Notes under the pieces: generated by a model | Database searches by the model: none | The model's input: only the letters and a program-made list of their open reading frames with translations | What the model was told of the DNA's origin: nothing | Made by a program: the position numbers and the translations under genes | Shown: positions 1 to 37,278 of the stretch, one piece after another | Numbering within the stretch: position 1 is the first letter of the stretch | Layout: each line of letters starts with the position of its first letter | DNA from: Synechococcus sp. | GTDB lineage: Bacteria > Cyanobacteriota > Cyanobacteriia > PCC-6307 > Cyanobiaceae | DNA length: 64,000 nucleotides | Direction of reading: 5' to 3' | Assembly (NCBI GenBank): GCA_047285805.1 | Contig: JBJBCN010000002.1 | Coordinates: 32,001 to 96,000, forward strand

Positions 1-905
1 TGGGCCTGCAGGGTGAACAGGCGCAGGGTCATCGGTGAGACCCCGGAATCCAGCAGGGCCCGGATAGTCGTGAAGTTGCCGAGGGATTTCGACATCTTCT
101 GGCCGCCCACATTGACCATGCCGTTGTGGAGCCAGTAGTGGGCAAGCTCTTTGCCGGTGGCGGCTTCCGATTGGGCGATCTCGTTCTCGTGGTGGGGGAA
201 GACCAGGTCCGCACCGCCAAGGTGGATGTCGATGGTGTCGCCGAGCTCCTCGCGCACCATCGCCGAGCACTCGATGTGCCAGCCCGGGCGCCCCTGGCCC
301 CAGGGTGAGGGGAAGCTGGGCTCGTCAGGTTTCGAGCCCTTCCAGAGGGCGAAATCAAAGGGATGTTGTTTGCGGGCTTCTTCGGTACTGGCGACCCGGC
401 CGGCGGCGTTGTCCTGCTGCTGCTCGAGATCCCGCCCGCTGAGTTTGCCGTAGCCGGCGTGCTTCATCACGGCGAAGTAAACGTCTCCATCGGCGGAGTA
501 GGCGGTCCCCTTGGCCTCTAGCTCACTGATCAGGGTGCGAATGGCATCGAGGCTGCGGGTGGCCCGCGGCATCCGATCCGCTGGAAGTATGTTCAGCCGT
601 CCCATGTCGGCGACGAAAGCCTCGATGTTGCGCTCGCTCACCGCGTCCATGGAGCTCCCTTCTTCACTTGCGCGGTTAAGGATCTTGTCGTCGATGTCGG
701 TGTAGTTCTGCACGAAGGTCACGGCGTAGCCGCTCCAACGCAGGTGGCGGCGAAGGATATCCCAGGCGATGTAGCTGCGGGCGTGGCCGAGGTGGCAGAG
801 GTCATAGACGGTGACCCCACAGCAGTAGATGCTGACCTTGCCAGGCTCGATCGGCGTGAACTCCTCGACGCGGCGGGTGAGGGTGTTGGTGAGCCGCAGG
901 GTCAT
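1..905 (-). CDS. cysS: Cysteine--tRNA ligase (5' part; runs off the window start)
   Basis: Manual translation from ATG at 905: [43 protein letters not shown] (HIGH-like), with KMSKSL near position 90. ATGA overlap with the polA stop. Absent from the ORF track because it is open-ended. Confidence 0.97.
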
Positions 906-29407: not shown

Positions 29408-29881
29408 GTGCCTGCTGGTCCTGTCTCCCCGGTGCAGGCCGATGCGTTGCGCAGCTCCCTGCATGATCGCGGCCAGCGTCTGACGCCCCAGCGCCAACGG
29501 GTCTTGGCCCTGTTCGAGCGCCTCGGCGAGGGCAGTCACCTGAGCGCTGAGGAGGTGCATCAGCGCCTGCTCAAGGCCGATGAACGGGTCTCCCTGGCCA
29601 CGGTGTATCGGACGCTGCGGCTCCTGAGTTCGATGGAGCTGCTCTGTGAACTCGAGCTGCCAGAAGGCGGGCGCCGCTTTGAGTTGGCCAGTGATGAGGC
29701 CCACCGGGACCATCACCACCTGGTCTGTGCGCGCTGCGGCCACACCGAAGAATTTGAGAGCGAAGCCGTGCTGCGGGCCGGCGGCGAGGCGGCGGCGCAG
29801 CACGGCTTCCAGTTGCTCAATTGTGTCTTGAACGTTCGGGCGCTCTGCCCGAGCTGCGCCCAGCAGGACGCCGAGGGCTAA
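29408..29881 (+). CDS. fur: Fur family transcriptional regulator (ferric uptake regulator type)
   Basis: RLTPQR, HLSAEE, SLATVYRTL, HHHLVCxxC, C-terminal CxxC. Confidence 0.9.
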   Translation: MPAGPVSPVQADALRSSLHDRGQRLTPQRQRVLALFERLGEGSHLSAEEVHQRLLKADERVSLATVYRTLRLLSSMELLCELELPEGGRRFELASDEAHRDHHHLVCARCGHTEEFESEAVLRAGGEAAAQHGFQLLNCVLNVRALCPSCAQQDAEG

Positions 29882-30087: not shown

Positions 30088-30663
30088 TCAGAGGGGAGCG
30101 AGGGCGAGCAGGCCGCCGGCCAGCGCCAGCAGAGCGGCCCCGAAGGAAGCGCCGCCGCGCTCAAGCCTTTGGCTCAGCCAGGCGCTGGCGCCGACGACGG
30201 CGACCGAGCCCAGCAGTGCACCAGCCCACCAGAAGGAGCTGCCGCTGGACTCCAGGCCGTGGAGCAGGGCGTGGACCGAAACACCGCCGGCCACGGTCAG
30301 GGCCAGGATCTGACGGCTGCAGAGACCGCGCAGCACCAGAACCAATACGGCGGCCACGGCGGAGAGCGCCAGGGCTGCCAGCACTTCGGCTCCAGGCAGT
30401 TGACCGCCGAAGCTGCCGAAGACCGAGCCGATCAGCGCTCCGGCCAGGGCGTAACCCAGGATTTGGCGGCCTGCCTGGGCGGCGCAGAGGCCAATGGCCA
30501 CCAGCATCAGCAGGTGGTCCAGACCCAGCAGCGGGTGCAGGGCGCCATCGATGACTCCGTGCTCGGCGCCGCCATGGGCGCCGGCGGGCAGCAACGACAG
30601 CAGGCTCAGGCTGAGACCGGCGGCGGCGCTGCTCAGCAGTGATCTGGTCAGTTTGGAGGTCAT
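30088..30663 (-). CDS. hupE: HupE/UreJ family Co/Ni transporter
   Basis: Signal peptide then HGG; HPLLGLDHLL (HPxxGxDH) and HALLHG motifs; cobalamin riboswitch upstream. Confidence 0.92.
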   Translation of the reverse strand: MTSKLTRSLLSSAAAGLSLSLLSLLPAGAHGGAEHGVIDGALHPLLGLDHLLMLVAIGLCAAQAGRQILGYALAGALIGSVFGSFGGQLPGAEVLAALALSAVAAVLVLVLRGLCSRQILALTVAGGVSVHALLHGLESSGSSFWWAGALLGSVAVVGASAWLSQRLERGGASFGAALLALAGGLLALAPL

Positions 30664-30699
30664 GGCAGATCCGGTCCGCGCCGGTACTGAAGGGGAAGG

Positions 30700-30820
30700 A
30701 CGGAGGGCGGCGAGCGTTCTAACTGGGGAGCGGCGCGCTCCCATCACAGCTGCGGGACAGTGCCGGATTCGCGCCGGACTTTCCTCGTTGCCTTCCTGGG
30801 CTGAATCCAGGAAACCGCTG
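30700..30820 (-). ncRNA. Cobalamin riboswitch
   Basis: Minus strand CGGTTTCC...AACGAGGAAAGTCCGGCGCGAATCCGGCACTGTCCCGCAGCTGTGA...CAGTTAGAACGCTCGCCG matches B12-element core motifs; lies in the hupE leader, with a CATAAT -10-like box at 30826-30831. Confidence 0.88.
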
Positions 30821-30834
30821 CTTGGATTATGGCT

Positions 30835-31944
30835 TTAGGAGAAACCCTTGCCTGCATCCTTGGCGACGCAGGCCTGGAGTTGTTTGCGGATTTTGGCGTG
30901 GTCGAGGTTCTTGCCGATCACGACCAACTGGTTCTTGCGGTCGCTGGGCTTGCTCCACTCGCTGTCGTCGATGGAGAAGCGTTTGCCGGCCAGGTGGAAG
31001 ACGTGGCGCTTGCTGCTCTCGTTGAACCAGAGGATTCCCTTGGCGCGGAAGACTCCGGCAGGAAGCTGGTTGTCGAGGAAGTTCTGAAACTTCCTTAGGG
31101 AGAAGGGGTCTGCGCTGTCAAAGGAGAGGGACGTGAATCCCTCGATGGCGAGGTGATCGGCGTGGGAATGGTCGTGGGAGTGCCCGTGATCGTGGGCATG
31201 GCTGTGATCGTGGTCGTGGTCGTGGTGATCGTGGGAATGGTCGTGATCGTGCTCATGCACGCAGTGACCGTGGTCGTGGTCGCAGTCGTCGTGGTTTTGC
31301 TGCGCGGCCACCTTGTCGCTCTCAAAGAGGCCAACGCTGAGCAGGAGCGGCAGGCTGACCTCCCCTTTGACCGAGCGCAGGATCCGCGCATCGGTTTTGA
31401 TCTCCCGCAGCTTCTCCTCCACGGCAGTGAGGCGCTCCTCGCTGACCAGGTCGCACTTGTTGAGCAAAAGGATGTCGCCATAGACCACCTGGGCCCGGGC
31501 CACTTCCCCAACAAGGATCTCGTCGCTGAAGTTCTCGGCATCGACCAGGGTGATGATCGAGTCGAGCCGGGTCTGATCCCGTAGATCACTTCCAATGAAG
31601 GTCATGGCCACCGGCAGCGGGTCGGCGAGACCCGTGGTTTCCACGACCAGATAGTCGACGGGATCCGGACGATCGAGGATTCGATAGACGGCGTCCAACA
31701 GCTCCCCGTTGATGGAGCAGCAGATGCAGCCATTGCTGAGTTCGACCATGTCATCGCTGGTGGCGATGATCAGATCGTTGTCGATGCCGATCTCACCGAA
31801 CTCGTTCACTAGAACAGCGGTTTTGACACCCTGCTGGTTGCTGAGAATGTGGTTGAGCAGCGTGGTTTTTCCCGCGCCAAGGAAGCCCGTCAGGATGGTG
31901 ACGGGGAGCCCGCTATGGGCCTGATCCATCAGGCTGCTGCTCAT
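30835..31944 (-). CDS. COG0523 (CobW/ZigA-like) metallochaperone GTPase with His-rich insert
   Basis: GFLGAGKTT, NEFG, GCICC, ETTG, NKCD, long HDHDHSH tract, CobW_C FRAKG. Confidence 0.95.
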   Translation of the reverse strand: MSSSLMDQAHSGLPVTILTGFLGAGKTTLLNHILSNQQGVKTAVLVNEFGEIGIDNDLIIATSDDMVELSNGCICCSINGELLDAVYRILDRPDPVDYLVVETTGLADPLPVAMTFIGSDLRDQTRLDSIITLVDAENFSDEILVGEVARAQVVYGDILLLNKCDLVSEERLTAVEEKLREIKTDARILRSVKGEVSLPLLLSVGLFESDKVAAQQNHDDCDHDHGHCVHEHDHDHSHDHHDHDHDHSHAHDHGHSHDHSHADHLAIEGFTSLSFDSADPFSLRKFQNFLDNQLPAGVFRAKGILWFNESSKRHVFHLAGKRFSIDDSEWSKPSDRKNQLVVIGKNLDHAKIRKQLQACVAKDAGKGFS

Positions 31945-32029
31945 GGTCAAGGCGGCTTGCTGCGGCTTCGAATCGTTCCTAAGTCTGGCTGGTTACGTGC
32001 TGGCAGAAAGACCAAGGTTGCTCCAAGCG

Positions 32030-32044
32030 TGAGAACTGTTATCA
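32030..32044. promoter_or_regulatory. Putative Zur box (7-1-7 palindrome) in the divergent COG0523/znuA promoter
   Basis: TGAGAAC-T-GTTATCA, 6 of 7 positions symmetric and close to the cyanobacterial Zur consensus TGATAATNATTATCA. Confidence 0.75.
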
Positions 32045-32066
32045 TTCCCAAAATCGCTCCACGTAT

Positions 32067-33005
32067 TTGTCGCGCTTTCTGGCGCTCGCCCCTGGGGGAG
32101 CTCTCGCTGCCGGCTTGGCAGCTTTTTCACTTGGGCCGATCGCGGTCGCTCAACCCATTCCGTCTGTGGTAGCGGCGAACGGGATTCTTTGTGATCTTGT
32201 TCGAGTTGTCGCAGGCGCAGATGTTTCTGTCGTCTGCCTTGTCCCGAACGGGGGTGACCCTCACGATTACCGATTAACCGCTCGTGATCGATCGGCGATT
32301 CAGTCGGCTTCGGTGGTTTTCCTCAACGGTTACCAGTTGAGCCCCGCCTTGGATCGGATCGGGCGTCTGAAGCGGACCGTCAAGGTTGCTGAAGTGGCTG
32401 TGCCCTCGAGCCCTCGCCGCGACCCGCATGTTTGGCACGACCCCATGCAAGCGGCGTCGATGGCGACTGTGGTTTCGAATCAACTCAAGGGTCTTGTTCC
32501 ATTACAGACGGTCGCCGGGATCGGTGCCCGCGCGTCGCGAGTGCGTTCCGAGCTGAAGCGGTTGGACAAGTGGGCTTCTAGTCAATTCGACACGATTCCC
32601 AAAAGCCATCGCGTGATCGTCACCGAGCATGACGCGCTCTCTTCTATGGCTACGCGCTACAAAGTTCGCTACTTGCCCCTCATGCAATCGTTCGCATCGG
32701 GTGGCCCCTTGCGTCCAAGCAGCCTCGGTTTCATTGTGCAGGCTGCACAATCATCAGGGACCAAGTATCTCTTTTCTGAAGCAAAGAATCCCTCCAAAAC
32801 TCTCAGGCGAATTAGCAAGGTTTCTGGAGTTCCCATTTATCGGTCTCAATTCCTGTCCGTTGATGGTGTCGCGAATGGCGGGACGTATGTCTCGACATTT
32901 GTCTCCAATGTTTGCTCGGTGGTGACGGCCCAGGGTGGCGTGTGTGATCGCACTTCAGGAGACGCTCTTGCGGCTCAGTGGAAGGCCTTGGGTCGTTCTC
33001 AATAA
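32067..33005 (+). CDS. znuA: Zn/Mn ABC transporter substrate-binding protein (ZnuA-like)
   Basis: DPHDY, DPHVWHDP and HDA ligands of cluster A-I binding proteins; signal peptide; no His-rich loop. Confidence 0.85.
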   Translation: MSRFLALAPGGALAAGLAAFSLGPIAVAQPIPSVVAANGILCDLVRVVAGADVSVVCLVPNGGDPHDYRLTARDRSAIQSASVVFLNGYQLSPALDRIGRLKRTVKVAEVAVPSSPRRDPHVWHDPMQAASMATVVSNQLKGLVPLQTVAGIGARASRVRSELKRLDKWASSQFDTIPKSHRVIVTEHDALSSMATRYKVRYLPLMQSFASGGPLRPSSLGFIVQAAQSSGTKYLFSEAKNPSKTLRRISKVSGVPIYRSQFLSVDGVANGGTYVSTFVSNVCSVVTAQGGVCDRTSGDALAAQWKALGRSQ

Positions 33006-33040
33006 ACCTACTACCCGAGCTCAAAAACAACTTAACTTCC

Positions 33041-34015
33041 ATGCAAAAACTTCTGATTGGTCTCTCCAAAAAACTCGCTGTCGGCCTCGGTTGCGTTGCA
33101 TCCTTCACGCTCCCTGCCTCTGCACATGGCGGAGCGGAAGGCTCTGATCTAAAGCCTGGTGAATACAAAGCCTCTCCCATCCTCACGATTGAGGGCCACG
33201 GTGGTCTGGAAAACAATCTTCAGGGCCAACCAAGGCACTACGCCATTGACGGTCTGTTTGGAACGGTCCTGGAGTGGGGCCTGAGCAACGAGGGCAGTTT
33301 TGCGATTGAGGCGGCTATCGGGCCGGCGCTGGTTTGGGGTGAAGCGGAGCACTTTTATGGTCAAGTCCATATTCATGGGGCTGAAGAGGCGCATGAAGAT
33401 GAACATGAAGACGAGGACCATGCCGAAGAAGAAGGCCATGACGATGAGGTCGTGACATCGGCTAGCCCTTGGAGACGTACGGATATCAAGGGCTATCTCT
33501 CTGCTCGCTACCAGCCGAACAAAAATTTAAGCATTCAGGCCACCTACAAGCCCTACTACATCACACGTACACAAGACGAAGATAAGCTTGGTCTTCGCAA
33601 CGAAGTGCAGGCTGGTGCTACATACGCATTTGGCGATGGTGACGTCAACTTCGCCCTTGGAGATGGCTTGGAAAATATTGTTGACGGCATTTTTGTGTCT
33701 GCCTACAACAACACCGGTTGGGACAGCGATGGGACCTATCTGGGTAACTACACCGACACCTGGGCTGGGTTTGGCTTTAATTACGACAAGCTCAATGTGA
33801 CTCTCTCGGGCGGTCCTCGCTTTTACACCCCTGGTAGCTACGCCAACCTCCCCCAGCGCACGGACTGGGGTGGTGAGATCGAATTCGAGTACCCGATCGC
33901 TGAGAACGTTGTTGCCTTTGCCCATTGGGAAGCGATATACAGCTCTCAAAATGGAGAAGGTTGGGGTGTCGGGTTCCAGCACCACATCGGCACGGGTGTC
34001 AGTTTCCGCTTCTAA
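33041..34015 (+). CDS. Uncharacterised exported protein, putative outer-membrane beta-barrel with His/Glu/Asp loop
   Basis: Signal peptide ASA|HGG, amphipathic aromatic beta strands, HIHGAEEAHEDEHEDEDHAEEEGHDDE loop, C-terminal GTGVSFRF. Confidence 0.7.
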   Translation: MQKLLIGLSKKLAVGLGCVASFTLPASAHGGAEGSDLKPGEYKASPILTIEGHGGLENNLQGQPRHYAIDGLFGTVLEWGLSNEGSFAIEAAIGPALVWGEAEHFYGQVHIHGAEEAHEDEHEDEDHAEEEGHDDEVVTSASPWRRTDIKGYLSARYQPNKNLSIQATYKPYYITRTQDEDKLGLRNEVQAGATYAFGDGDVNFALGDGLENIVDGIFVSAYNNTGWDSDGTYLGNYTDTWAGFGFNYDKLNVTLSGGPRFYTPGSYANLPQRTDWGGEIEFEYPIAENVVAFAHWEAIYSSQNGEGWGVGFQHHIGTGVSFRF

Positions 34016-34064
34016 GGCGTAGTGCTGAGATCCGTCTAGCGTGAACTGACTACTCCGAAACGCT

Positions 34065-34757
34065 TTGCTTCGCGTCCGCAACCTCTGCGTCCATCGCGGT
34101 CAGCAATTGGTCTTGGACCATCTCTCCTTTCAGATCAACCAAGGCTCCTTAGTCGCCTTGGTTGGCCCGAATGGAGCAGGAAAAACCACTCTGCTTCATG
34201 CCCTCGAGGCCCAGTTACCGGTGACCTCAGGTTCCATGGAATTGGCTGGTTCTCCGTTAACACCACCCCTAGCTCGCAGCCAGATCGCCCTAATGCCCCA
34301 GCGGGGAACTATCGACTGGAGCTTCCCCATCACGGTCCAGGACTTGGTCTCCCTGGGACGACTGTCTGGCCGTCGACCAGGCTGTTGCGACGTTGATGCG
34401 GCGCTGCAACGGGTTGGTCTTGCTGGATTGGGTAGGCGTCGATTGGATGAACTCTCAGGCGGTCAGCAGCAACGTGCTCTTTTGGCCCGAACGTTGTTGC
34501 AGCCGGCAAATCTCTTGCTTCTCGACGAGCCCTGTGCCGCGATTGACCCTCCCTCTCGCACCAACCTGTTGCAGGTGATGCGTCAACTCTGCGATTCAGG
34601 CTTGACCCTCGTCGTCAGTAGTCACGACTGGGGCAGTGACCTGGATCGTTACGATCAGGTGCTCGTGTTGGATCGTGCCCTGCTGGCTCAAGGGCCTCCT
34701 GAGACGGTCCGGCGCTCATTGGGTGATTTGAGAGTCGGCCACGACTGCTGTGGTTAG
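34065..34757 (+). CDS. znuC: Metal ABC transporter ATPase (ZnuC)
   Basis: GPNGAGKTT, PQR..IDWSFP, LSGGQQQR, LLDEP, SHD. Confidence 0.9.
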   Translation: MLRVRNLCVHRGQQLVLDHLSFQINQGSLVALVGPNGAGKTTLLHALEAQLPVTSGSMELAGSPLTPPLARSQIALMPQRGTIDWSFPITVQDLVSLGRLSGRRPGCCDVDAALQRVGLAGLGRRRLDELSGGQQQRALLARTLLQPANLLLLDEPCAAIDPPSRTNLLQVMRQLCDSGLTLVVSSHDWGSDLDRYDQVLVLDRALLAQGPPETVRRSLGDLRVGHDCCG

Positions 34758-35155
34758 TCACGTGGCCGGGACTTGCACTGCTCGCACAGGCCAAAAAACT
34801 CCAGGGTGTGGAAGAGCAGTGCGAACCCCTGGCTGTCTTCCGTCTCGAGGTCGACATGATGCACAGGGCAGCGCTTGAGCACAGCCGTTGTGCCGCAGTC
34901 AACGCAGGTGATGTGGTGTTCGTCTCGCCCCAACGGGGCAAACAGGGCTTCGCCGCTGGGGAGATGTCTGCAGCGGATCTGTCCCCGTTGCTGCAGTTGG
35001 CGCAGGTGCCGGTAGACCGTGGCCAGTCCCATCGGACTGTTGCTGGCCCGGAGACGAGCGTGCAAGTCCTGCCCGGACAGCTCTTGGTTGGCCTCCTCCA
35101 AGTGCTGGATGATCAGCTGCTGCCGCTCGCTAATGCCGGCAACCTGGGAGGGCAT
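34754..35155 (-). CDS. zur: Zinc uptake regulator (Fur family)
   Basis: LATVYRHL, DEHHITCVDCG, CPVH, HTLEFFGLCEQC; embedded in the znu cluster. Confidence 0.85.
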   Translation of the reverse strand: MPSQVAGISERQQLIIQHLEEANQELSGQDLHARLRASNSPMGLATVYRHLRQLQQRGQIRCRHLPSGEALFAPLGRDEHHITCVDCGTTAVLKRCPVHHVDLETEDSQGFALLFHTLEFFGLCEQCKSRPRD

Positions 35156-35187
35156 GCGCTTCCGCCTTGGACGTAATTCCAGATCCT

Positions 35188-35979
35188 ATGGCTGACTCTT
35201 GGTGGCTCACACCCTTCGGGATCGCCCTGGTGGTGGGCATGCTCTGTCCCTTGGCGGGAACGGCACTGTTGGTGCAGCGCCGGCTCTTTCAGGTCAATTT
35301 GATTTCCCATGCGGTGCTGCCTGGGCTGGCCATCGCCCTCTTTTGGGGCATTGAACCGGGACTGGGTGGATTGATTAGCGGGGTGTTGTTTGCCTTGGTG
35401 GCCGAGCGGATGACCAGCGCTCTTCCCCAGGGGGATCGCAACCGGGAGGCCGTCCTGAATTCGGTCTTGGCCGGATCGCTGGGCCTTGGCGTTCTGCTCA
35501 TTCCCTTGTTGGGGATTCGGGTGGATCTCGAGGCTGTGCTGTTTGGGGACCTCCTGGCCGCGGGTCCCCGTGAGCTGATCCAAAGCCTCTTGGCCTTCGC
35601 CGTGATCGTGATGCTCTTGACGCTTCGCTACCGGCAGTACGTCTATCTCGGGGTCGACCCTGTGGGCGCCCAGGCCGCTGGTTTGCGGGTGAATTCCCTG
35701 CGTTTCTTGCTGACGCTCGTGGCCGCGGTGGCGGTCGTGAGCGCGGTGAGCGCCGTTGGCATTGTGTTGGTGGTGAGTCTCATGGCGGCGCCGGCCCTCT
35801 TGGCGATGCCCAAGGCCAGGAGTCTCCGGCAGGCCCTGTTGCGCTCAGCCCTTTGGGGATTGCTGATCTCCGGCGCTGGTTTCGTTGTTGCGGTGCAACC
35901 TGCGATCAACCTTCCCCCCGGGCCCGTGATTGGGTTTGTGTGCATGTTGACCCTGCCCTTGCAGTTATTGCGCCGGTAG
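35188..35979 (+). CDS. znuB: Metal ABC transporter permease (ZnuB)
   Basis: ISHAVLPGLA, LFGDLL, DP..A...G, AVGIVLV, PPGP. Confidence 0.9.
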   Translation: MADSWWLTPFGIALVVGMLCPLAGTALLVQRRLFQVNLISHAVLPGLAIALFWGIEPGLGGLISGVLFALVAERMTSALPQGDRNREAVLNSVLAGSLGLGVLLIPLLGIRVDLEAVLFGDLLAAGPRELIQSLLAFAVIVMLLTLRYRQYVYLGVDPVGAQAAGLRVNSLRFLLTLVAAVAVVSAVSAVGIVLVVSLMAAPALLAMPKARSLRQALLRSALWGLLISGAGFVVAVQPAINLPPGPVIGFVCMLTLPLQLLRR

Positions 35980-37278
35980 CCAAAAAGCCTGCTTGATCGG
36001 TTTGTCCAGGACCTTCAACGCCAAGGTGGAGGCCTGAAGCTCTGCCGCACGCCCCAGTGACTCCTTGGGATTGCGCAGGGCCAGCAGCAGCACATCTCGG
36101 GTGGGATCCAAGGCAAAGCCACTGCGCATTTCCAGTTCCCATCCTTTGAGTTCGCGCTGGGTTTGGACGACGCCCGATCGGTTCATCACTACGACGCGCG
36201 GGGTTTGGCTGTTGGTCGCTTGGTCCCAGTGGGTCAGCAAGAGCCAGATGCGTTCCCCGCTGCGTTCGCAGGCCGTTCCCATCACGGCATCCAGGCCAAT
36301 CCAGAGCTGCTTGGGGGGTTGCCCGGGCTCCAGCAGTTCAACGGATTGGCGGTAGTCCGGCCATCGCCGCGTCAGTAACGCTCGGCCCCCCGTTGGACAA
36401 ACACTGCTCAGGTCGCGGCTCCCCGGCAGGAACTGCCGTCGCGGTGGGTGGCCCGGGAGGTTGCTCAGCACCAGGCCATCGGCCTCGGGCGCAATCAGTG
36501 CTCCGCCTCCCGGAAGCAGCTGAGCCGTTCCTGAGGCGTCCAGATCGAGGCGCCTGCGTTGCCCATTGGCTTGGATCAACGACGTGAATGAGCGGGCGAA
36601 CCCTGGAGCTCCCCACTGAATCAACAGATCGCCTTTTCTGTTGCTGCTGAAGTGGCTGAAGGTCAGTGGACTCTCGAGCAGTCGCTTGATTCCCTTCACG
36701 ACAAGGGATTGGGGCTTGGACGCAAAGGTGGCCTGTTGATCGAGTTCAAGCAGCCAGGTCTCTTCAGTGCGCCCGCCACTGGTGCTGAAGGCAATTCCCG
36801 CTCCATTGCCGAGGGGCTCCACGGAGGTGATGGGGCCGTTGGCTTCGCTCAGGAGTCTCCAGTGGCCATCGCGTCCAAGGAGCTCGAGTTGGTCCCCTTG
36901 GGGGCCAGGACTGACGACCACCAGCCAGGGCCTGGGATCCCACCAGAACTGTTGTTGAGCGAGAGCAACACCGCGTTGATCGGCTCCCCTCAGGACGACC
37001 TTCAAGGGGGCTGTGATGGTTTGTCCTGGATCCAGCAACAGGCGCAGAAGATTGCCGCTGCCCAGCCATTGGTGGGTCAGCGCCGGCTCCAGCTGGCTCG
37101 TCTTGGCCACGCTGGCTCGCTCCATGGGCCGGCTGAATTTCGCGCTGAGCGCTGCAGGTCCAGAGGCGACGGTGCTGGATTCCAACCGGCGGAGTTGGGG
37201 CGGCCTCTGCAGCAGAACCTGTTGCTGCAGTGCGGATAGGGCCAGTCCAGCCGCCAGGAACCAGCGCAGTTGTCTCAT
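35965..37278 (-). CDS. Uncharacterised membrane-anchored periplasmic protein (Ig-like + putative beta-propeller)
   Basis: N-terminal hydrophobic segment, FSRPM Ig-like motif, repeated beta-rich blades; overlaps the stop of the TIGR03943 gene. Confidence 0.6.
   Translation of the reverse strand: MRQLRWFLAAGLALSALQQQVLLQRPPQLRRLESSTVASGPAALSAKFSRPMERASVAKTSQLEPALTHQWLGSGNLLRLLLDPGQTITAPLKVVLRGADQRGVALAQQQFWWDPRPWLVVVSPGPQGDQLELLGRDGHWRLLSEANGPITSVEPLGNGAGIAFSTSGGRTEETWLLELDQQATFASKPQSLVVKGIKRLLESPLTFSHFSSNRKGDLLIQWGAPGFARSFTSLIQANGQRRRLDLDASGTAQLLPGGGALIAPEADGLVLSNLPGHPPRRQFLPGSRDLSSVCPTGGRALLTRRWPDYRQSVELLEPGQPPKQLWIGLDAVMGTACERSGERIWLLLTHWDQATNSQTPRVVVMNRSGVVQTQRELKGWELEMRSGFALDPTRDVLLLALRNPKESLGRAAELQASTLALKVLDKPIKQAFWLPAQ

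Follow-up and report, generated by a model that had tools for sequence, protein, structure and literature searches.

How zinc crosses the outer membrane of marine picocyanobacteria, which need the metal where free zinc is extremely low, is a question raised directly by one locus of Synechococcus sp. The locus lies on contig JBJBCN010000002.1 of assembly GCA_047285805.1, within the 64,000 nucleotides (nt) from position 32,001 to 96,000 that we analysed as a whole and refer to as the window. There, between znuA and znuC as the first-pass annotation of this DNA had stated, stands an open reading frame (ORF) of 324 amino acids (aa), which we call X. We consider it probable that X serves zinc acquisition, with a role in uptake, as an outer-membrane barrel that is controlled by Zur and works without TonB. 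This analysis establishes the ORF itself, a conserved Zur box, its linkage with znuA and a predicted barrel, whereas the orientation of the loops, the path through the lumen, conduction, zinc specificity and hand-off to ZnuA are inferred. The first-pass annotation had proposed a small TonB-independent outer-membrane component of zinc uptake and had named four observations that would speak against it, namely a soluble fold, a clear match to a characterised porin family, no co-occurrence with znu genes and no dependence of expression on zinc or Zur. We encountered none of the four, and the proposal is supported.

A 2012 genome survey (Barnett et al., PMC3323870) states that no specific mechanism of outer-membrane zinc uptake had been identified in cyanobacteria. 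In the genome under study, whose assembly has a completeness rating of 100%, nothing matches the TonB-dependent receptor barrel (PF00593), so the zinc route of the Neisseria type is unavailable to it. X is a concrete candidate for the missing outer-membrane step, in that it appears to be controlled by Zur, nearly always belongs to a znuA unit and carries a loop of zinc-type ligands. Metal-regulated outer-membrane proteins that serve metal entry with a His/acid capture loop are an already known kind of protein. In the literature searched there is no description of the X family, of a 12-strand architecture for it, of its being restricted to picocyanobacteria or of its constant association with a ZnuA that lacks the His-rich loop.

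The association of X with znu genes was examined in species-representative genomes, where 249 stretches matched the search pattern, 133 of them contained a relative of X, and the best 80 were kept as loci. At 77 of the 80, a ZnuA homologue encoded on the strand of X ends no more than 450 nt before it, which bears out the synteny that the first-pass annotation had suggested checking. At the three exceptions (L047, L067 and L079) X stands among unrelated genes, including those for a penicillin-binding protein, RsmB, a rhomboid protein and a cupin. The description of X as lying inside the znu operon is correct for the window but does not generalise: the order znuA-X-znuC recurs at a single locus of the 80 (L001), and in the usual layout znuA and X form a pair that ends with X, with znuC and znuB divergent or upstream.

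The arrangement of the window has a possible history of its own. Locus L057 has two neighbouring znu clusters (region compared, L057:2276-11203). With the second of them the window shares 71% identity in ZnuC, 68% in Zur and 67% in ZnuB, compared with only about 40–45% identity of ZnuC and ZnuB to their counterparts beside the znuA-X pair of L057. Judging from these identities, the window cluster (32067-35979) gives the impression of having been merged from two such clusters, and such a merger would explain why X is found between znuA and znuC only here and in L001.

That X belongs to the Zur regulon we regard as very likely. As had been noted in the first pass, X lies downstream of a Zur-box palindrome, TGAGAAC-T-GTTATCA (TGAGAACTGTTATCA), located in the divergent promoter between a COG0523 gene and znuA. 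It is the sole site in the window within two mismatches of TGAGAAYNRTTATCA, where 0.17 such sites are expected. What is unique is this shifted 7-1-7 form of the box, unlike the 13-letter core, AATGATNATCATT, which taken alone has four sites in the window at three mismatches against 6.06 expected and is uninformative. The published cyanobacterial Zur-box consensus is NTNANAATGATNATCATTNTNAN (PMC9337993). In other genomes, a site within two mismatches of the published core is present in 47 of the 73 regions preceding znuA, as opposed to 62 of 2000 random 320-nt segments drawn from the same loci, and the regions with three mismatches mostly carry the window's own variant, ATGAGAACCGTTATCAT. Each of the three X genes that stand away from znuA has a Zur box of its own, 27–39 nt before the start of X. 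The box is GAGAATGATTATCGTTCTC in both L047 and L067, with one mismatch to the core, and has two mismatches in L079. The association of X with Zur is therefore independent of znuA.

Within the window, X starts 35 nt past the stop of znuA and ends 49 nt before the start of znuC, and neither gap contains a terminator-like site. Together with the Zur box, this makes a single Zur-controlled transcript that spans znuA, X and znuC the simplest reading of the sequence. No sigma-70-like promoter was detected in the segment 31800-36100.

Dependence of expression on both zinc and Zur has been published for a gene that we presume, by gene order, to be the orthologue of X. In strain WH8102, znuA is synw0971, and the gene after it, synw0972, termed uncharacterised by its authors, is up when zur is mutated and when no Zn is added (0 nM; PMC9337993). 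The zur mutant raises the whole cluster synw0968-0973, and synw0970-0973 are the only four genes raised both without Zur and at low zinc; accumulation of Co, Fe and Mn is altered in the mutant too (PMC9337993). By gene order and by its clade-III relatives, synw0972 is probably the orthologue of X. This is supported by the znuB-znuC / znuA-X layout at the Parasynechococcus-labelled locus L071, by the same order at L072 and L074, and by the finding of X in strains A18-40 and BOUM118, which we take to be members of clade III. The presumed orthologue thus provides transcript data in a tractable strain. The supplementary files of PMC9337993 that were searched contain nothing on synw0972, and the other papers of the literature searched do not mention it. 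No entry from WH8102 came up in the protein search or among the cluster members.

Of the four RNA runs considered, three (X5, X6 and X7) are metatranscriptomes and X1 is probably DNA. Contigs inside X come from two runs of two studies, namely X5 (33036-33186 and 33366-33636) and X6 (33870-34020); X6 also covers the 5' region of znuA, and X7 covers its end. Metatranscriptome libraries can hold DNA, so that cover of X indicates presence rather than transcription, and the uncovered parts are uninformative.

We are highly confident that X is an outer-membrane barrel. The AlphaFold2 (AF2) model built on 49 relatives has a predicted local distance difference test score (pLDDT) of 77.6, a predicted TM-score (pTM) of 0.73 and 12 strands (listed in Table 1), and in all 12 polar and hydrophobic faces alternate. 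The pLDDT falls below 50 at residues 12–34, 113–141 and 200–208. A model from the single sequence (pLDDT 32.7) was useless and was replaced by this alignment-based one. In a Foldseek search of the PDB, the model has 180 matches at E <= 0.001 with TM-scores of only 0.23–0.52, and the matches listed, to rank 49, are all outer-membrane barrels or engineered forms of them. A search with VIA-align, independent of Foldseek, gave the following structural matches (Z-score; root-mean-square deviation; residues aligned): AaaA (18.6; 3.1 Å; 235), AIDA-I (18.3; 3.9 Å; 234), Hbp (17.4; 3.3 Å; 225), BrkA (17.3; 3.2 Å; 211), NalP (16.8; 3.2 Å; 216), the COG4313 channel (16.8; 3.3 Å; 229), FapF (15.2; 3.4 Å; 219), KdgM (14.9; 2.7 Å; 165), NanC (13.9; 3.8 Å; 187) and the copper transporter PcoB (11.2; 5.2 Å; 190), with LpxR (Z 13.2) and OMPLA (Z 10.5) as further matches. 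The solved chains are 12-stranded barrels, and the record title of another match, 9fdg, names a designed 12-stranded barrel. They share the predicted architecture of X but only 8–10% of its residues, and a shared fold is not a shared function. In the ESM Atlas the matches are confined to unnamed Atlas clusters, one PF24653 cluster and OmpG-like clusters. The structure prediction and fold search proposed in the first pass thus point to a closed 12-stranded outer-membrane barrel and to no soluble fold.

Other sequence features agree with the first-pass description of a beta-barrel. The leader looks like a Sec signal cleaved by the A-x-A rule at ASA/HGG, as had been proposed, and it contains no lipobox; a hydrophobic leader before A/H-G is found in all 80 locus proteins, and the predicted first mature residue, His29, is invariant in 64 relatives. 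The three strand motifs rich in aromatic residues and Gly that had been singled out, WAGFGFNY (241–248), WGGEIEFEY (276–284) and VAFAHWEAIY (291–300), all fall within predicted strands, namely 8, 10 and 11. The ending HHIGTGVSFRF, which had been likened to a beta-signal, coincides with strand 12; of the 78 complete locus ORFs, 77 end in Phe and one in Tyr. A BLASTP comparison of residues 29–200 with 201–324 revealed no internal duplication (E 0.16), though the paralogues described below match PF24653 twice.

The orientation of the connections between strands follows from the rule that both termini of a barrel are periplasmic. By this rule the external loops have 7, 45, 9, 4, 8 and 9 residues and the periplasmic turns 3, 4, 19, 2 and 2, the 19-residue turn (T3) being the exception to the pattern of short turns. 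The 45-residue loop (L2) has a conserved base, EAEHFYGxVH, followed by the His/Asp/Glu stretch HIHGAEEAHEDEHEDEDHAEEEGHDDE (residues 110–136, nt 33368-33448), which contains 6 His and 15 Asp/Glu. The His/acidic loop of the first-pass annotation is thus present, and the topology rule predicts that it is external. L2 could be delimited at 77 of the 80 loci, where it ranges from 19 to 105 residues (median 35), with 0 to 35 His (median 8) and 5 to 44 Asp+Glu (median 11). Over these 77 loci its composition is 24% His and 36% Asp+Glu, and it is often repetitive (for example, HGDEDHGDED). The N-terminal tail has 1–3 His at the 76 loci where its anchoring motif was found. The stand-alone genes of the WH 8017 / WH 7805 group (L047:5890-6831 and L067:2631-3470) form a subtype with a His-free Glu loop, RVEIEEEGEEEEEGEGSPY; the Zur box is still upstream, and the L047 protein ends in Tyr (the L067 protein is cut off).

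Conservation within X is highest elsewhere. T3 has a mean conservation of 84%, with G198-D208 invariant in 64 sequences, and pLDDT below 50 at residues 200–208; the spacing of its Asp and Asn residues is reminiscent of calcium-binding loops. Also invariant in the 64 sequences are H29, H53, H66, H104, H295, H315, E51, D70, D148 and D275. By strand alternation the inward-facing residues are E51, H53, H66, D70, E90, R146, D148, D239, R260, R273, D275, E279, H295 and H315, and many invariant Gly residues face inward likewise.

The sequence family of X was found in picocyanobacterial records alone and bears only generic names. A word-indexed search yielded 537 relatives at E <= 0.001, labelled, wherever the source states an organism, as Synechococcus, Cyanobium, Vulcanococcus, Prochlorococcus or unclassified cyanobacteria, apart from a few oddly labelled bins that are probably mislabelled. 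Their source names are hypothetical protein, "Uncharacterized conserved secreted protein" (RCC307) and "putative conserved secreted protein". A search with the profile of alignment A1 through 1.84 billion representative proteins returned 80 at E <= 0.001, mostly fragments of the same family, and among them two distant proteins, P0172 (260 aa, E 1.8e-12) and P0189 (256 aa, E 4.5e-7), each with two matches to PF24653. The cluster of P0189 includes a member of identical length from Synechococcus sp. MIT S9452. A1 does not contain P0189, and hhalign aligns the two with 90.8% probability over X residues 145–324. The hhalign probability for alignment A2 against P0189 is circular, P0189 being a row of A2, and we used only the alignment itself. 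There, P0189 has no L2 insertion, and opposite H53, H66, H295 and H315 of X it carries E, A, E and I.

For X, the score against PF24653 ("Cyanophage outer membrane protein like beta barrel domain") is 23.8 bits, where the cut-off is 27; its close relatives P0063, P0068 and P0104 reach 30.8, 33.1 and 29.1 bits, and P0122 and P0123 reach 22.9 and 25.5. Nothing else in Pfam matches X at E <= 0.1, NCBIfam assigns it to no family, and the PDB sequences contain a single chance-level match (E 0.66). The clear match to a characterised porin family that the first pass had considered is thus lacking in Pfam, where PF24653 is the sole sub-threshold match, and in NCBIfam and the PDB. By sequence, X is a divergent branch of a picocyanobacterial family of small barrels, distinguished by its histidines and inserted loop, and its relation to PF24653 is that of a divergent relative, not of a clear-cut member.

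X occurs once in the window's genome. A match was found in 119 of the 401 genomes of the taxonomic family (87 of 272 high-quality genomes and 31 of 64 genera) and, within the genus of the window, in 11 of the 29 other genomes; one genus has it in 29 of 29 genomes and another in 0 of 29. Such a patchy distribution could mark adaptation to zinc scarcity. A viral contig collection contained 26 stretches matching the search pattern, none of which encodes a relative of X. One protein, P0138 (293 aa, from a single metagenome contig of 2752 nt and alone in its cluster), is a chimera of X and ZnuA. Its first ~120 residues correspond to X up to the start of the His loop, and the join lies within a His-rich stretch. 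The remainder corresponds to the last two thirds of a ZnuA, one of those that carry a His-rich loop (PF01297, 141.3 bits, profile positions 84–263). P0138 may be an assembly artefact or the product of recombination between two His-rich coding repeats.

The presumed partner of X, the ZnuA encoded next to it, is the genome's only PF01297 protein. It had been described as lacking the His-rich loop of many ZnuA proteins, and the sequence agrees: before the second His ligand it has VPSSPRRDPHVW, and hence no such loop. Of 69 X-linked ZnuA proteins examined, two truncated ones were left out, and all 67 that were scored, which have the DPHxW motif, are without the loop as well, with 1–2 His in the 45 residues through the motif. 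In 42 aligned X-linked homologues (alignment A3), ZnuA H66, H121 and H188 are invariant; three His are the zinc-type ligand pattern in ZnuA-like proteins, not the manganese type. Since there is no other PF01297 protein in the genome, this ZnuA may also have to serve manganese. Four Cys, C42, C57, C283 and C293, are invariant in the same alignment and may form two disulfides specific to the X-linked subtype of ZnuA. A prediction of the complex between X (29–324) and ZnuA (29–312) gave scores of 0.51, 0.01 and 0.01 against a mark of 0.32, which says nothing either way on binding.

That X is neither a TonB-dependent receptor nor an SLH-domain porin, as the first-pass annotation had argued, agrees with its 324 aa, its 12 strands and the lack of a match to either domain; Pfam detects no TonB-receptor, plug, SLH, OprB (PF04966) or autotransporter domain in it. 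Six OprB-porin matches occur in the genome, in open frames of 428–559 aa located elsewhere than X.

Taken together, these observations would fit the following mechanism. At low zinc, Zur would leave its box at 32030-32044 and znuA-X-znuC would be transcribed. X would be exported by Sec and assembled by the barrel assembly machinery (BAM) into the outer membrane as a 12-stranded barrel. Its long, flexible His/Asp/Glu loop L2, facing seawater, would collect Zn2+, which would pass to the conserved, inward-facing E51, H53, H66, D70, E90, D148, D275, E279, H295 and H315. The metal would exit into the periplasm close to the N-terminal His and to the invariant acidic turn GDGDVNFALGDG, where ZnuA, having no His-rich loop of its own, would take it and deliver it to ZnuBC. 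A stricter version, in which X constitutes a full passive zinc relay composed of a His/acid antenna, a His/Asp/Glu ladder, the turn GDGDVNFALGDG with the N-terminal His, and direct docking of ZnuA, is in our judgement doubtful. If it were true, metal capture by a loop would, in the lineage of X, have been transferred from the binding protein in the periplasm to its outer-membrane partner, and cells without TonB would possess a directional, high-affinity route for picomolar zinc.

The individual elements of this proposal have precedents in known systems. ZnuD of Neisseria meningitidis serves outer-membrane zinc acquisition, as is predicted for X, and in its flexible external loop 3 two His/Asp/Glu clusters form a "fishing net" above a buried site (PMC4557270). 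In X, too, an external His/Asp/Glu loop is predicted above conserved inward-facing His. ZnuD differs in being TonB-dependent with a plug inside the barrel; X has no plug or TonB-receptor domain, 12 predicted strands and no sequence relationship to it. MnoP is metal-regulated and TonB-independent, and is not known to have a His-rich loop. It is the outer-membrane manganese importer of Bradyrhizobium (PMC9334652) and, as is proposed for X, a small protein of that membrane dedicated to one divalent metal and needed under scarcity; it differs in metal and phylum, and X matches no other named outer-membrane family in Pfam or NCBIfam.

Porin-like routes are also relevant. Porins are reportedly among the zinc-binding proteins of a marine cyanobacterium described in a 2014 Metallomics paper. 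The SLH/OprB porins of cyanobacteria and MspD of Mycobacterium smegmatis have been proposed, as X is here, as TonB-independent outer-membrane routes for metal entry; the former differ from X, in which neither domain is present. Zinc starvation and loss of Zur both raise MspD (PMC13098993), a porin of the octameric Msp family from mycobacteria, as they raise the presumed orthologue of X. ZepA of Anabaena, a Zur-regulated exoprotein for zinc uptake (PMC10957091), resembles X in its regulation, its location outside the plasma membrane and the His at its mature N-terminus (His plus acidic residues in ZepA), but is secreted, found in the exoproteome and equipped with a PEP-CTERM sorting domain, whereas for X an integral membrane barrel is predicted. 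By sequence, X is related to one family alone, that of P0172, P0189 and PF24653, whose paralogues have 256–260 aa and of which P0189 has neither L2 nor the conserved His.

Several points weigh against the interpretation of X as an uptake barrel for zinc. In the literature searched we found no experiments on any member of the X family. The model is a prediction that leaves L2, the N-terminal tail and T3 unplaced (pLDDT below 50), and the list of inward-facing residues is based on strand alternation alone, not on coordinates. The best structural matches are autotransporter barrels with filled pores, and a 12-stranded barrel need not be open. At two loci (L047 and L067) L2 has no His at all and Glu only. 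ZnuA scores about equally against manganese models (MntC, 111.9 bits) and zinc models (AztC, 101.6 bits), all below their cut-offs, and is the genome's only protein of its kind. The identification of synw0972 with X rests on gene order and clade-III relatives, not on the sequence of synw0972. Finally, the distribution of X (119 of 401 genomes; 11 of 29 in the genus) implies that it is dispensable for many relatives, general OprB porins being available as well.

The rival that best survives these points is that X captures or buffers zinc at the cell surface, with the barrel as a plugged or closed anchor and zinc entering through general OprB-type porins. We consider this unlikely. It accommodates the filled pores of the autotransporters and the six OprB matches of the genome, and an L2 that is repetitive and varies in length from 19 to 105 aa is more like an antenna than a gate. 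The likeness to the autotransporter beta-domains is one of fold only, as X has no passenger (13 residues separate the cleavage site from strand 1) and no Pfam match to them. Against this rival, it is not the loop that is most conserved but the inward-facing polar and His residues and the predicted periplasmic turn, which is hard to understand for a mere anchor.

Distinctly less probable is that X has the same fold and regulation but transports another metal (Co, Ni, Mn, Cd or Fe) or a metal-ligand complex. His, Asp and Glu are unselective ligands, the genome's sole cluster A-I binding protein matches manganese and zinc models about equally, and HupE, with the same mature N-terminus HGGAE, is encoded 2.3 kb away. 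Accumulation of Co, Fe and Mn changed in the WH8102 zur mutant (PMC9337993), and oceanic zinc is mostly bound to unidentified ligands (PMC3323870). Against this stand the Zur boxes before X, whether it is linked to znuA or alone, and the response of the presumed orthologue synw0972 to zinc supply (PMC9337993). The ligand positions of the X-linked ZnuA proteins, with three invariant His in the zinc-type pattern, likewise favour zinc.

It is very improbable that X is co-regulated with znuA as an outer-membrane protein without a role in uptake (structural, enzymatic, involved in export, or a zinc-independent replacement). The 12-stranded barrels do include enzymes and secretion pores, as the matches to LpxR, OMPLA and FapF illustrate, and Zur regulons elsewhere in bacteria contain zinc-free paralogues (PMC3323870). 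Such a role would not account for the His/acid loop found throughout the family or for conserved His that face inward and are missing from the His-less paralogue P0189, and no catalytic family in Pfam or NCBIfam matches X. The notion of X as a zinc chaperone like ZinT or ZepA, soluble in the periplasm or secreted, which is suggested by the database label "conserved secreted protein" and by the ZepA-like His at the mature N-terminus (PMC10957091), would need the barrel prediction to be wrong, and we give it hardly any credence in view of the 12 amphipathic strands, the terminal Phe, the Z-scores of 16.8–18.6 to membrane barrels over 211–235 residues and the relatives that exceed the PF24653 outer-membrane barrel cut-off.

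Table 1. Coordinates of X, its parts and neighbouring features in the window (strands of X from the AF2 model)
Feature	Position (nt)	Strand	Residues of X	Remarks
HupE (HupE_UreJ)	30088-30747	-		PF04955, 46.7 bits; upstream, 2.3 kb from X
COG0523/CobW-type GTPase with His-rich stretch	30835-31950	-		PF02492 (cobW), 189.7 bits; PF07683 (CobW_C), 91.3 bits
Zur-box palindrome	32030-32044	.		divergent promoter between COG0523 gene and znuA
znuA	32067-33005	+		PF01297, 157.6 bits; periplasmic metal-binding protein, cluster A-I type
X	33041-34015	+	1-324	ATG 33041, stop 34013-34015; predicted outer-membrane beta-barrel
X, signal peptide	33041-33124	+	1-28	MQKLLIGLSKKLAVGLGCVASFTLPASA/HGG; cleavage ASA/HGG by the A-x-A rule
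X, mature N-terminal tail	33125-33163	+	29-41	HGGAEGSDLKPGE; expected in periplasm or barrel lumen; low-confidence model
X, strands 1-6			42-57, 65-81, 85-100, 146-158, 163-174, 184-196	
X, loop L2	33341-33475	+	101-145	between strands 3 and 4; disordered in model; predicted outward
X, turn T3	33629-33685	+	197-215	FGDGDVNFALGDGLENIVD; predicted periplasmic; top-conserved non-strand segment
X, strands 7-12			216-228, 233-248, 251-264, 273-287, 290-301, 311-323	
X, last strand and C-terminal beta-signal	33971-34012	+		strand 12; ending ...GTGVSFRF
znuC (ABC ATPase)	34065-34757	+		PF00005 (ABC_tran), 101.7 bits
zur (FUR-family regulator)	34754-35155	-		PF01475, 63.1 bits
znuB (ABC-3 permease)	35167-35979	+		PF00950, 135.9 bits

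The remaining genes of the locus (Table 1) add some minor observations. The zur gene of the window is 50–98% identical to FUR genes that adjoin znu genes at other loci. A second FUR-family gene (29408-29881, + strand; PF01475, 116.5 bits) lies 5 kb from it and scores higher against Fur/PerR models than against Zur models. The COG0523 GTPase has ZigA as its top NCBIfam match, under the ZigA cut-off, and contains a 40-residue His-rich insertion, HDHGHCVHEHDHDHSHDHHDHDHDHSHAHDHGHSHDHSH; its gene is divergent from znuA, and the single Zur box is common to both. The G+C content drops from ~0.69 to 0.52–0.58 over COG0523-znuA-X-znuC and then returns to ~0.63 (window positions 30500-36000). Given this low G+C and the occurrence of X in only 11 of the 29 other genomes of the genus, the cluster may have been acquired or exchanged horizontally. 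Finally, the first pass had pointed out that X and HupE share the mature N-terminus HGG, and the identity extends to HGGAE: the predicted mature ends are nearly alike, AGA/HGGAEHG in HupE and ASA/HGGAEGS in X, and the N-terminal His of the two proteins may be a shared metal-binding device.

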